DNA from: an uncultured Pseudomonadales bacterium
Lineage (GTDB): Bacteria > Patescibacteriota > Microgenomatia > UBA1400 > Chazhemtobacteraceae
Direction of reading: 5' to 3'
DNA length: 64,000 bases
NCBI GenBank assembly: GCA_964618725.1
Contig: CAZUBK010000001.1
Coordinates: 2,079 to 66,078 of the forward strand
Numbering within the stretch: the first letter of the stretch is position 1; each line of letters opens with the position of its first letter. The translations under genes and the position numbers were made by a program. Shown here one piece after another: positions 3,201 to 32,770 of the stretch. The notes below the pieces were generated by a model. That model was not told the DNA's origin. It saw only the letters and a list, made by a program, of their open reading frames with translations, and ran no database searches.

Positions 3201-3229
3201 ATAGATATTCTACTATATGGGACTGATAC

Positions 3230-3267: not shown

Positions 3268-4584
3268 TCAATCAAGATAGTTGGTAACTAACCGTTTAAA
3301 CAGTTTGTATTTTTTGTTGTACGAAGCGTTTTCCGGTAATCCGCAGGGAAAACGAAGAAAGAGAGCGAGAATGATAGTTTTACGACGTTCTCCTTTAGCC
3401 TCCTTGGCAGCCTTAAGTTCTTCGAGGAAATCAACCATGGCTTGGTGGAAGATGTTTTGGGCTTGGATGGAATAGCGCCAGCACATGTCACGGGCAAAGG
3501 CGACGACGTTGGGATAGTAGCGGTCTCGCACCATTAAGGGGCGATCGATTATTTCCCAACTTGACTTCTGTCTAGCCCAACGTCCCCAATTATTTGGTGT
3601 AGTTGGGAGAGCAACTTCGACCCGATTGACTAATCTTGCGACGCTTTTTTTCCCTGGTATACCTGAAGCGAGATCAGGCAACTCCATAGTGATACATGCC
3701 TCTTCCCATTCTTTGAGAAGCTGTTTAAAGGTGTCAGCAAGTGCTTTTTGATCGGAGGTAAGAATATATGCTCGATCCTGAAGAAGTAGTGCGTTGATGG
3801 CGGCATATAGTGATTCAAGAAAGAACATCTGAGTAACAAAACCGCTAACTGTTTGGATGGTATTATCTTTGTTCTCTTTGTAGATAGAATTGTCTTCGTC
3901 GGAAGTTTTGTTGTGAAGAGACGAGGAATATAGGGTAATAATTTCCTTGTATTCGGGTGATGAAGTTGTTGACAGATTTCGTGATGTATAAGAGGTGGCT
4001 TTACTTATCAGAGCGAGAATTTGGAAGTAGCGGGAAGGGTTTTTGAAGGGTGCTCCTGTATTGGTATGAAGGCCTAAGAAGGCACAGTTATCGAGATCAA
4101 TAAGGCCGGCTTGCAGGAAACGAAGGAAGATATATACACCGGTTTTGTAGGACCAAAACGGTCCGGGAGAGATCTCCCAAAAGTTAGTCATATTGCCAAG
4201 ACCGAGGCGTATGCCGATGGCATCAAGAAAGATGAGATCCTCTGAAATCAGCTCTTGTTTGGGGAGAGGAAACTCTGTCTCATAACCAAGAGTGGCTAAT
4301 AAATGACGAATGGGAAGATTCTTGGTTTCTCTATGATTAAGACGGGTGCGAGTTCTTTCGGTATGGAGCTTACTTATGCCGTCTGAGTTAAGTTGTTGAG
4401 AAAGAGTTTGGATGTTTTCGTGGCCATAGGTGCGGCGAATGTAGGTCAGATACTTCATCTGTTGATCAAAAGAGCTAGTGGTATATTTTGTCCGACTGTT
4501 GGGTGAAAGTAGCTTAAGAAGTGTTTGATTGACTGCGTGTTGCTCTGCTTGGCCAATTTGACGATGTTCAAGGTAGCGGTCCAT
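3268..4584 (-). CDS. Carboxylate-amine-ligase-like protein (putative GS/GCS2/PafA-fold amidoligase). This is a 5'-truncated tandem paralog of 4839..6803.
   Basis: 438 aa. It shares the conserved blocks LATLGYETEF, SPGPFWSYKT, FLRFLQAGLIDL and Y-K-E-N-K with the upstream 654-aa paralog, and ends the same way (KYKLFKRLVTNYLD). Homology continues in-frame and stop-free for about 89 codons upstream of the annotated ATG (to 4851) with no start codon. Confidence 0.5.
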   Translation of the reverse strand: MDRYLEHRQIGQAEQHAVNQTLLKLLSPNSRTKYTTSSFDQQMKYLTYIRRTYGHENIQTLSQQLNSDGISKLHTERTRTRLNHRETKNLPIRHLLATLGYETEFPLPKQELISEDLIFLDAIGIRLGLGNMTNFWEISPGPFWSYKTGVYIFLRFLQAGLIDLDNCAFLGLHTNTGAPFKNPSRYFQILALISKATSYTSRNLSTTSSPEYKEIITLYSSSLHNKTSDEDNSIYKENKDNTIQTVSGFVTQMFFLESLYAAINALLLQDRAYILTSDQKALADTFKQLLKEWEEACITMELPDLASGIPGKKSVARLVNRVEVALPTTPNNWGRWARQKSSWEIIDRPLMVRDRYYPNVVAFARDMCWRYSIQAQNIFHQAMVDFLEELKAAKEAKGERRKTIILALFLRFPCGLPENASYNKKYKLFKRLVTNYLD

Positions 4585-4838
4585 TAATGAAAGTCGGGTT
4601 GGCCAGTCCTTTGATGAATTTTGATATTCATTGAGGAGTTCCTGTAGGTATAGATTGGTGGCAATTGTGTCGAGTAATTTGAACCAGGCATTGAAACCGT
4701 CTGAAAAAAAGAGGGTGATGGTATGACCGGTTTGGGAAATAATACGACGTATAGTTGGATCGTTTAAATTTAGTTGAAACCCCGACCGTAAGGTCGTGGG
4801 TTGTTCATCAAAGCGGTTGTCAAGGGTCAGTTGCGAAC

Positions 4839-6803
4839 TTAATCTAAGTACTCAGCAACTAACTTTTTAAACAATTTGTACTTTTGGTTACTGGTAGCGT
4901 CTTCTTTTAGTCCACAAGGGAAATGAAGGAAAAGAGTATCTATTAAACACCGTCGTTGGTCTCCTTTTGCCTCTTTCGCTGATTTAAGTTCTTCAATGAA
5001 TTCTCGCATTGCTTTATCCATGGCTTTGCGAACACGGCTAGCGTAACGCCAGCAGATACTTCTGCTGAAAGCAACAATATTGGGGTATTCGCAGCCTCGG
5101 ATGACAAGGGGTTGATCGACGATGTTCCAAGAAGATTGGTGTCTCACCCAGCGAGTCCATTGTCCAGTCGGGGTAGGTAGAGCGGTCTCAACTCGTTGAC
5201 CGAGTTTGACCATTGAAATTGATTTCGGTCTACTTTGAGTTAGATCAGGCAACTTCATATACCGACAGCCCTCTTCCCATTCTTGGAGGAAATCTTCAAA
5301 AATGATAGCCAGAGCTTTTTGGTCTGACGTGAGATCTTTACCGGCTTGTCTAAGCAGATACGCTTTGAGGGCGGCGTTAATGTTTTCGAGTAAAAGTTGA
5401 TAAGCGGTGAAACCGGTGACGGTTTGAAGAGTTTGTCCTTTGTTTTCGGTATAGGCGCCGAAGTCAGAAGTGCGGTGGTTGAGTTTGAAATACTGGAGGG
5501 ACGAAGAGTAGGCAGAAAGATTGTAGTGGGGGAGTTTGACTTCACTGGCGTATGAAACAGCCTTCCAGATGGATGCAAGAATGTACTCATTATCAGATAC
5601 TTCAGTACCAAGAAGGCCGACTCCGGTGTGGATTCCCTGTCGAGCGTAGGTGTAGATATCGATCAGTCCGGCTTGAAGGAAGCGCATGAAGATGAAATTA
5701 GCGGTTTTGGCTGAAAGAAAAGGCCCCGGGGATGATTCCCAGTGACCGGAACTGTCTCCACCGGTGCCTAGATGGAAGCCGATGGTTTCCAAAAAGATTA
5801 AGTCTTCAAAAGTTTGTGGATCTTGGCAAATAAATTCGATTTCATAGCCGAGTGTCACCTTGAGATGTTGAAGTGGATGGTTAGGTGATTCGAGTAAACC
5901 GAGTTTCGCTATTTTCCGTTTGGTATCAATGGGTTTGACTGATTGTTCATTAAGCAGATCTTGTTCAATTTGTCTGACTTTCTCGATGCCGGTTTGGCGT
6001 CTGATACTAGCTAGCAATTTCATTCGTTTGGGAAATGAGGCGGAGGTAATCAGGGCTTGATTGGCGGGTGACAAACGATCAATCAGAGTCTTATCGACAA
6101 GACGGGTCTCGACTTGGCCGAGCTTGCGATACTGAAAATATTCCTCCATCAGACTTAATCGAGTAGGCCAGTCTTTTGATGATTTTTGATATCGGTTGAT
6201 GAGTTCTTTTAGAAATGAGTCAGAGGCGATCTTTCGGGCGAGATTTAGCCAGGCGTGGTAGCCAGTTGTAAGATAGAGAACTCCCATACTTCTTCCGGTT
6301 AAAGAGAGAGCTTCTCGAAGATCGGGTTGTTGAATGATGGCTATGAATTGATCAAGATACATTTCGTTCTCGTGGATGTATTGGATGACATCATAGAGAT
6401 CAGCAGGTTCATAGTAGCCTTTAAGGATATCAACTAGCTGAAGGTGAGCCCAGATTTTGTCGGTGATGCGTAGGGGTGGATCTTCGTAGAGTGAGTAGTA
6501 GCCGGTGGAAATATTTAATAGGGATCTTAGGACATCAAGGCATCTTTCACCCCTGAAGAAATGGGGGAAATTTTCAGCTTTGACAAATTGGCCAAGTCTG
6601 AGAAGTTGACGTCGTGATTGACGGGCGTCGGAAAGAAATGCAAGTAAGTCTTGCCCGAAGGATTTTTCGGCGATCTCAGTGAGGGTATCTTTGATTGCTT
6701 CACGATCTTTTTCTGCCAAACGACCGTCACGTCTGTAATAATCGTTGGTTCGAAAGTATTTGTTAATATTTGAAAGAGCTTTATCGACGAGATCTTTTTC
6801 CAT
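4839..6803 (-). CDS. Large carboxylate-amine-ligase-like protein (putative amidoligase) with an extra 225-aa helical N-terminal domain
   Basis: 654 aa. The motif KVTLGYEIEF resembles the N-terminal strand of YbdK/GCS2 (TLGIELE) and PafA/Dop (MGIETEYG). Further conserved blocks are IGFHLGTGG, SPGPF and YTENKG. The RBS is AAGGAGAAAAA before the ATG at 6803. Confidence 0.5.
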   Translation of the reverse strand: MEKDLVDKALSNINKYFRTNDYYRRDGRLAEKDREAIKDTLTEIAEKSFGQDLLAFLSDARQSRRQLLRLGQFVKAENFPHFFRGERCLDVLRSLLNISTGYYSLYEDPPLRITDKIWAHLQLVDILKGYYEPADLYDVIQYIHENEMYLDQFIAIIQQPDLREALSLTGRSMGVLYLTTGYHAWLNLARKIASDSFLKELINRYQKSSKDWPTRLSLMEEYFQYRKLGQVETRLVDKTLIDRLSPANQALITSASFPKRMKLLASIRRQTGIEKVRQIEQDLLNEQSVKPIDTKRKIAKLGLLESPNHPLQHLKVTLGYEIEFICQDPQTFEDLIFLETIGFHLGTGGDSSGHWESSPGPFLSAKTANFIFMRFLQAGLIDIYTYARQGIHTGVGLLGTEVSDNEYILASIWKAVSYASEVKLPHYNLSAYSSSLQYFKLNHRTSDFGAYTENKGQTLQTVTGFTAYQLLLENINAALKAYLLRQAGKDLTSDQKALAIIFEDFLQEWEEGCRYMKLPDLTQSRPKSISMVKLGQRVETALPTPTGQWTRWVRHQSSWNIVDQPLVIRGCEYPNIVAFSRSICWRYASRVRKAMDKAMREFIEELKSAKEAKGDQRRCLIDTLFLHFPCGLKEDATSNQKYKLFKKLVAEYLD

Positions 6804-6861
6804 TTTTTCTCCTTAAGATAGAGAAAGGCCGCCTCAGTTGAGGCGGCCGGTGGAAGGAGAG

Positions 6862-6960
6862 TTACTCTCCCAGCGTTTCTTCGGGTTCGGCGGCTTCGTC
6901 CACTTGGGGATCTTCTGCCTCGAGCTCGTCGTCCATTTCCATTTCATCGGGGTTGAACAT
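6862..6960 (-). CDS. Unannotated 32-aa hyper-acidic peptide, MFNPDEMEMDDELEAEDPQVDEAAEPEETLGE, ending in C-terminal Gly-Glu. Candidate tag or substrate peptide for the adjacent ligases.
   Basis: I translated this by hand; it is not in the supplied ORF table. The RBS AAAGGAGAA sits 6 nt before the ATG at 6960. It carries 18 Asp/Glu in 32 residues and its codon GC (about 58%) is far above the window average. It is followed by the hairpin GGCCGCCTC-AGTTG-AGGCGGCC (6826-6847) and then the ligase gene. Confidence 0.45.
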   Translation of the reverse strand: MFNPDEMEMDDELEAEDPQVDEAAEPEETLGE

Positions 6961-7011: not shown

Positions 7012-7039
7012 ATTCTAACTTAAATTCAATACTTGTCAA
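7012..7039 (-). promoter_or_regulatory. Consensus sigma70-type promoter (TTGACA-16 nt-TAGAAT) driving the acidic peptide ORF. Its -35 overlaps a divergent TTGTCA for pepF.
   Basis: Minus-strand TTGACA is at 7039-7034 and TAGAAT at 7017-7012. The 5' UTR contains the hairpin GCTCAG-ATTTA-CTGAGC (about 6985-7001). Confidence 0.4.
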
Positions 7040-29821: not shown

Positions 29822-29924
29822 AAGTGTTGAATAGTAAATATTAACCTAACTAAATACCAATCTAGTCCATAAACTACCCGAAGTCAATAGGGCGATTCTA
29901 CTCGAAACACGATACAATGGAGAG

Positions 29925-32703: not shown

Positions 32704-32770
32704 GAAGAAGAATATAGCATAAATCCTTACTTGCACATGTTCGGGTAAATCTCTGGTACAATGTAGTGTT

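Follow-up and report, generated by a model that had tools for sequence, protein, structure and literature searches.

A probable short-form paralog whose conserved coding sequence extends upstream of its first canonical start codon

Where does a gene begin when its reading frame remains open, and homologous to that of its neighbour, well upstream of its first canonical start codon? This question is raised by two tandem paralogs, designated P1 and P2, on the minus strand of a 64,000-nucleotide stretch of contig CAZUBK010000001.1 (assembly GCA_964618725.1), hereafter the window, in whose coordinates all positions are given. P1 is the full-length copy, and P2 is annotated as a protein of 438 amino acids (aa) starting at ATG 4584, a call that probably came from gene finders accepting ATG, GTG or TTG only. 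We found that the coding sequence of P2 reaches at least 51-61 codons upstream of this ATG, to approximately 4737-4767. On balance, P2 is probably a short-form paralog of P1 that is intact and kept by selection, and neither a decaying fragment nor one half of a frameshift fusion. The coordinates of all features are given in Table 1.

The minus-strand P2 frame contains 89 open codons upstream of ATG 4584, which extend to 4851 and are bounded by a TGA at 4854-4852; as a preliminary description of this locus had stated, none of the 89 is ATG, GTG or TTG. The near-cognate codons in this frame are CTG 4830, ATA 4752, ATT 4743, ATT 4740, ATC 4719 and ATT 4665. Compared with P1 by BLASTP, the extended P2 open reading frame (ORF) showed 46% identity over 507 aa (E = 1e-151), with the alignment beginning at P1 residue 157, opposite residue 29 of the extended ORF, at approximately 4767. 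The homology proposed earlier is thus real, but its range is P1 residues 157-218, or 61 of the 89 codons, and not residues of about 140-225 as first proposed. The first 28 open codons (4851-4768) showed homology to nothing found, and contain a hairpin. The open frame does end inside the 3' end of P1 in another frame, the overlap being four codons at -1 relative to P1. Among the ~54 ORFs of the window, this start-less open stretch is the largest, and no second case of a P2-like start-less extension was present, the runner-up ORFs having ordinary N-termini.

An open frame of this kind could be an artefact of assembly or sequencing, the true sequence at 4740-4851 carrying a canonical start or another frame. 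The source is a metagenome-assembled genome, and short homopolymers are present (GGGG, TTT and a T7 run at 4712-4706). We consider an artefact very unlikely, as a Logan assembly of run SRR12113420 was identical base for base to the contig over 3000-7000, although this assembly likely derives from the same reads. In addition, the alignment with P1 keeps its frame before and after the T7 run, and the two arms of the hairpin are complementary as assembled.

The pattern of substitution between P1 and P2 was analysed by the Nei-Gojobori method. The proportion of nonsynonymous differences (pN) was 0.356 in the 61 codons of the extension and 0.356 in the annotated body, while the proportion of synonymous differences (pS) was 0.70 and 0.78, respectively, and saturated in both. 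Identity at codon positions 1/2/3 was 0.54/0.72/0.43 in the extension and 0.57/0.70/0.37 in the body, indicating a coding pattern in both regions. Fourteen codons of the extension differ only synonymously between the paralogs, and the peptide SSKDWPTRLSLM is the same in both proteins, yet six of its codons differ (for example, Ser AGT versus TCA). Neither stops nor indels relative to P1 were found in the 61 homologous extension codons and the 438-codon body. Overall, nucleotide identity is 55% and amino-acid identity 46-48%; because the latter is so low and pS is saturated, the duplication is, as judged from divergence, ancient, and both copies appear to be under purifying selection. Had this stretch lost its coding role when the genes duplicated, it would by now be unrecognizable. 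These results refute the proposal of a very recent tandem duplication with a decaying 5' part, and a decaying 5' fragment or pseudogene was ruled out by the equal pN, the intact frame and the retention of all near-invariant residues.

A HMMER scan of 1.84 billion representatives identified 78 distant relatives of P1 and P2, all at 25% identity or less, and the two proteins are members of an uncharacterised, unannotated family associated with Patescibacteria. Upstream of the position of the annotated P2 ATG, 63 of the 67 sequences covering the column have a Trp, and R or K usually follows three residues later in the family alignment; P2 encodes this motif within the extension. With a profile hidden Markov model (HMM) of the family built without P1 and without P2, extended P2 scored 279.1 bits versus 252.1 for annotated P2 (+27 bits), and annotated P2 begins at position 188 of the 640 in the model, within a conserved block. 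The extension alone scored 9.5 bits (E = 2e-5 for that single comparison), whereas one of the two alternative frames of the extension, used as a control, scored -2.0 bits. The annotated Met of P2 corresponds to Met219 of P1, in a family column of conserved hydrophobic residues (M, L or F).

The 499-aa extended P2 from 4767 was modelled with AlphaFold using a 77-sequence alignment, a run that superseded one with only the two paralogs as alignment, for which the predicted local distance difference test score (pLDDT) was 39. The extended model had a pLDDT of 89.2 and a predicted template modelling score of 0.91, with pLDDT 87-95 at residues 31-60. The helices modelled in the extension occupy residues 4-12, 24-37, 39-49 and the first half of 55-68, and this last helix contains the annotated Met as residue 62. 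The start context of ATG 4584 scored -10.1, whereas 37 real starts gave +3.4 +/- 3.1 and random positions -4.3, and this ATG has neither a Shine-Dalgarno (SD) sequence nor a -10 box. We assign the extension to the P2 protein because of the selection pattern, the family HMM, the modelled helices and the poor context of ATG 4584.

Although the majority of family members measure 650-720 aa and P2 lacks the ~156-residue N-terminal region of P1, stand-alone short members of 481-534 aa occur elsewhere, with 22-62 residues before the motif Trp; extended P2 has 54. All near-invariant residues are kept in P2 (E147, G161, E163, E165, G185, E198, H234, E298, K300 and N420 in extended-P2 numbering). Because stand-alone short forms exist and these residues are kept, P2 appears to be a short-form paralog and not a degenerating fragment. 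Three other candidates for short members were rejected, P0044 and P0061 as contig-end fragments and P0051 as a full-length gene broken by one in-frame TGA. No other tandem pair of a long and a short copy was present in the eleven family loci inspected, the distant family loci being single genes. At locus L091 (770-2833), two ORFs of 293 and 382 aa have been called for one family member; they share a frame and are parted by a single TGA in conserved sequence (...RKAV*SLPPEEKFKYK...), which suggests either that the lineage, from the candidate phyla radiation, recodes TGA (genetic code 25 or 4) or that a nonsense mutation has occurred.

The overlap of the open frame with P1 had also led to the proposal of a programmed -1 frameshift near the P1 stop, with read-through into the extension producing a two-module P1-P2 polyprotein. 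The extension frame is indeed -1 to P1 over the last four codons (P1 stop 4841-4839; frame open from 4851), and a natural two-module single-chain member of 835 aa (P0019) exists in the family. The slippery X_XXY_YYZ heptamer to be sought near 4839-4851 was, however, absent in the P1 frame from the overlap GAG TAC TTA GAT TAA and from the last 20 P1 codons, and the nearest heptamer in P1, at 4923, is upstream of the -1-frame TGA at 4854. The hairpin at 4807-4775 starts more than 30 nucleotides (nt) past the overlap, while the spacing of a stimulator for a slip would be 5-9 nt, and the 28 linking codons, for which no homology was found, encode this stable hairpin. Both P1 and P2 end in ...YLD-stop, aligned to the last residue; this is the family C-terminus, and because P1, P2 and other members share it, the P1 stop is considered ancestral. 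Furthermore, the second module of P0019 begins ~25 aa before the GYEIE motif and not at the W-motif region. The fusion is therefore not supported, and we regard it as extremely improbable; P1 and P2 are distinct cistrons, divided by the stable hairpin. Bypassing in the style of T4 gene 60 was likewise rejected, since the GAT take-off (4844-4842) and in-frame GAT landing (4761-4759) are likely a chance match with no other hallmark. P0019 itself is a naturally fused single chain with two catalytic modules, both of which bear the HP...GYE/GWEIE, SPGPF and YPN..F.R motifs.

We then considered how a separate P2 cistron would be started. The hairpin between the paralogs is similar to the stem of the P2 terminator; only UUUCAAC, a poor U-tail, follows its stem, and the terminator scan made no call. 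A MAFFT alignment of the regions downstream of P1 and P2 was uninformative, and an Rfam scan of the window detected tRNAs only, with nothing at the P1/P2 locus. The codons ATA 4752, ATT 4743 and ATT 4740 stand immediately 5' of Ser 4737, from which the homology is clear. Initiation of P2 would most likely take place at one of these three codons, in the AU-rich unstructured stretch after the hairpin, while CTG 4830, used by reinitiation after termination of P1, would be a less likely site. The resulting protein would be ~490-520 aa, like the stand-alone short homologs. The non-canonical start suggested in the preliminary description is plausible in view of the selected coding sequence upstream of ATG 4584 and the near-cognates at the edge of conservation; no SD sequence or -10 box accompanies them, but their surroundings are AU-rich and unstructured, and most genes of the window are likewise without an SD.

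Three wider explanations of the start were rejected. For a leaderless start, no TAnnnT was found 4-10 nt before any candidate, except for a weak TAGATT before CTG 4830. Genome-wide use of non-canonical starts was discarded because ordinary N-termini were found in the other genes whose frames stay open far upstream, and an alternative genetic code because TGA is the stop, with a terminator after it, in P2 and many of its neighbours.

The region of the hairpin offers another route, namely a frame change from a 12-codon upstream ORF (uORF), in which translation would start at ATG 4808 (or TTG 4823) and shift by -1 at G_GGT_TTC into the P2 frame. Such a shift might be programmed, or a 1-nt deletion, in the genome or in the assembly, might have broken an in-frame start within the GGGG/TTT runs, homopolymer runs being typical sites of indels. 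The product would be ~513 aa (MNNPRPYGRGF-QLNLNDPTIRR...), in the range of the 511-534-aa short members. The heptamer is correct in form and phase and the extension is exactly -1 to the uORF; at a background of 0.0067 per position for X_XXY_YYZ, only ~0.07 such motifs are expected in the uORF by chance. Motifs of the class R_RR.U_UU.Y are shift-prone in E. coli, but without stimulators they slip at well below 1% (PMC4066793). Here, the 86 nt after the heptamer fold no better than shuffles (z = -0.31), indicating that there is no downstream stimulatory structure, and no SD-like element was found upstream of the heptamer. Moreover, the hairpin begins at the second base of ATG 4808, so that this ATG is base-paired in a stem of -16.3 kcal/mol, and it lacks both an SD sequence and a -10 box, its context scoring -4.3. 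Against an indel, the second assembly is identical, and an extra G is not suggested because the hairpin pairs perfectly with the present G-run. Taken together, a frame change from the uORF is unlikely, yet it deserves real weight.

A further possibility is that P2 has recently lost a canonical start, an ATG at 4752, 4743, 4740 or 4719 having changed to ATA, ATT or ATC, which would leave either a truncated 438-aa protein made from ATG 4584 or a nascent pseudogene. Each of these four codons is one substitution from ATG, ATC 4719 is aligned with Met173 of P1, and a redundant paralog would be a plausible target of decay. Nevertheless, neither a stop nor a frameshift occurs elsewhere in the 499 codons, and the extension shows no rise in pN; because the rest of P2 shows no decay, any loss of the start must be extremely recent. 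A start at ATG 4584, with its poor context (-10.1), would also drop a near-invariant motif and cut a predicted helix. We judge such a loss quite unlikely when taken by itself; near-cognate initiation and a recently lost ATG at the same codons may together be the leading option.

Several observations weigh against near-cognate initiation of an intact P2. The context scores of the near-cognates range from -2.8 to -10.9, the best being ATA 4752 at -2.8; no context is good, and an SD sequence and a -10 box are absent from all. In this window, a -10-like TAnnnT ending 4-10 nt before the start was found for 21 of 45 genes, compared with 10.7% of random positions, and an SD-like motif for 8 of 45, compared with 13.5% of random positions; most initiation in this genome appears to be leaderless or SD-independent. 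Leaderless initiation favours AUG, and non-NTG starts are very rare in characterised bacteria. The phased G_GGT_TTC, expected by chance only ~7% of the time, favours a frame change instead, and the agreement of the two assemblies is weakened by their likely common reads. Finally, a word-indexed search of 5.8 billion protein clusters recovered the two window proteins and nothing else, no ortholog was found in GTDB species representatives or in Joint Genome Institute (JGI) metagenome contigs, and the family alignments diverged too far to allow locus searches by pattern; because orthologs were absent, the start could not be checked by comparison.

Roughly weighed, near-cognate initiation receives the largest share, short of even chances, and is followed in turn by the shift or indel in the uORF, by assembly error, fusion and other explanations taken together, and by the recent loss of an ATG. 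A stronger reading holds that P2 has long been under purifying selection without a canonical start and is stably made by unusual initiation or recoding as the short-form partner of P1; we consider this possible but doubtful. The candidate routes would be AUA or AUU at an SD-less site, CUG reinitiation, or a -1 shift at G_GGU_UUC.

Known systems resemble P2 in part. E. coli infC and pcnB have AUU start codons, and P2 is like them in having conserved coding sequence upstream of the first ATG, GTG or TTG, AUA and AUU codons at the edge of conservation, and a truncated gene call. Unlike infC and pcnB, P2 has no SD sequence or known autoregulatory logic, and its host genome seems mostly leaderless or non-SD. 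By the motif rules of Sharma et al. 2014 (PMC4066793), P2 is like dnaX and the IS3/IS911 orfAB elements in having a phased, shift-prone G_GGU_UUC between an upstream ORF and its own frame. In P2, however, the 0-frame ORF is a 12-codon uORF with an occluded start, and there is no hairpin or pseudoknot downstream and no SD stimulator upstream. As in tandem pairs formed by partial duplication, P1 and P2 lie next to each other on one strand, P2 is the shorter, and similar hairpins follow both. In contrast to recent or degenerating duplicates, the P1/P2 pair is ancient, as its saturated pS shows, with purifying selection acting on both copies.

The earlier label of 'ligase-like' stood at the level of the fold and not at that of sequence families. 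No Pfam or NCBIfam match was obtained for P1, P2 or any of the 77 family members, and no sequence match was obtained in the PDB. In a Foldseek search, the nearest structures to the extended P2 model were 1tt4 (E = 6.5e-4) and 1r8g (E = 1.5e-3), both YbdK/GCS2 proteins at probability 1.0, followed by glutamine synthetases (probability 0.9-0.99) and Dop (0.75), although the template modelling scores (TM-scores) of these matches were low, at 0.23-0.30. The conserved motifs of the family are G-x-E-x-E, E-x-S-P-G-P-F, H-x-N and ExK, the first three of which we take to be reminiscent of the metal- and ATP-binding strands of the glutamine-synthetase fold. The P2 family may resemble YbdK/GCS2 (1r8g, 1tt4), glutamine synthetase and Dop/PafA (4b0r) in fold, as the Foldseek matches suggest, but differs from them in its low TM-scores, in having no Pfam, NCBIfam or PDB sequence match, and in its long helical N- and C-terminal regions, which these proteins lack. 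The model suggests a glutamine-synthetase/YbdK-like fold, and 'ligase' is a fold-level lead, not a family assignment.

The main yield of this analysis is an annotation correction together with the question of P2 initiation. The 438-aa model of P2 omits a conserved, structured part of the protein and should give way to one of ~490-520 aa; genes such as P2 would be caught by start calling that takes homology into account. If initiation at a non-canonical codon were real and stable, P2 would offer a clear-cut case in nature of a gene that is under selection yet lacks an NTG start. More may be gained from the uncharacterised family, with its putative glutamine-synthetase-like fold, its absence from Pfam and the small acidic ORF that recurs upstream of its genes.

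Table 1. Features of the P1/P2 locus and of related loci (window positions unless a locus is named)
Feature	Position	Strand	Remarks
P1	4839..6803	-	Full-length 654-aa paralog; ATG with strong AAGGAG Shine-Dalgarno; C-terminus ...AEYLD-TAA
P2 as annotated	3268..4584	-	438 aa; ATG 4584 is the first canonical start of the ORF
P2 homologous start-less coding extension	4585..4767	-	61 codons, versus P1 residues 157-218
Extension-encoded peptide sequences			LNDPTIRRIISQTGH... and FSDGFNAWFK
W-P-T-R codons (W-x-x-R/K motif)	4594..4605	-	Upstream of annotated P2 ATG
Non-homologous open codons, P2 frame	4768..4851	-	28 codons; last 4 P1 codons overlapped in -1 frame
Hairpin between paralogs	4775..4807	-	-16.3 kcal/mol, z = -4.1; 0/200 shuffles fold as well
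12-codon uORF, MNNPRPYGRGFN then stop	4770..4808	-	P1 frame; extension frame -1 to uORF; stop TAA 4772-4770
G_GGT_TTC (X_XXY_YYZ heptamer)	4776..4782	-	uORF frame; -1 slip would join ATG 4808 to the extension
CTG in P2 frame	4828..4830	-	8 nt past P1 stop; termination-reinitiation candidate
Near-cognates ATA 4752, ATT 4743, ATT 4740	4738..4752	-	AU-rich, unstructured, directly 3' of hairpin
ATC in P2 frame	4717..4719	-	Aligns with Met173 (ATG) of P1
Intrinsic terminator 3' of P2	3233..3256	-	10-bp stem and T-run
GC-rich hairpin	6827..6848	-	Between small ORF and P1
Small acidic ORF, 32 aa (MFNPDEMEMDDELEAEDPQVDEAAEPEETLGE)	6862..6960	-	Upstream of P1
Best promoter-like site of locus	7012..7039	-	TTGACA-16-TAGAAT, 11/12 matches; upstream of small ORF
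TAnnnT example site	3201-3225	-	
TAnnnT example site	29900-29924	+	
TAnnnT example site	32746-32770	+	
Small-ORF locus L002	3958-4122		
Small-ORF locus L003	126-326		
Small-ORF locus L004	5757-5933		
Small-ORF locus L005	5716-5919		
Small-ORF locus L087	4730-4948		

The small ORF upstream of P1 has counterparts at other family genes. In six loci, including that of the window, a small ORF (32-72 aa, mostly acidic or of low complexity) is followed by a strong GC hairpin and then by the family gene, and a T-run follows the GC hairpin in several of them. Clear homology among the small ORFs of the six loci was found only between L003 and L005, and no common C-terminus like the GGQ/E of Pup was present. 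This arrangement of small ORF, hairpin and gene resembles that of a precursor peptide, a leaky terminator and a modifying enzyme.

Two further observations concern the neighbourhood and the source of the DNA. On the minus strand at 1914-2518, a toxin-antitoxin-like pair was detected on the Logan contig; one protein, of 105 aa, matches Pfam Gp49 (HigB-like) and the other, of 96 aa, HTH_3/HTH_37. TypA of the window shares 62-68% identity with proteins from metagenome-assembled genomes of Patescibacteria and Woesebacteria, which places the organism in the Patescibacteria (candidate phyla radiation). The closest TypA homologs (65-68% identity; L006, L008, L009 and L011) include some TPA metagenome-assembled genomes labelled 'uncultured Pseudomonadales' or 'Gammaproteobacteria', and these labels, which stand amid Patescibacteria/Woesebacteria matches, are probably taxonomic mislabels.

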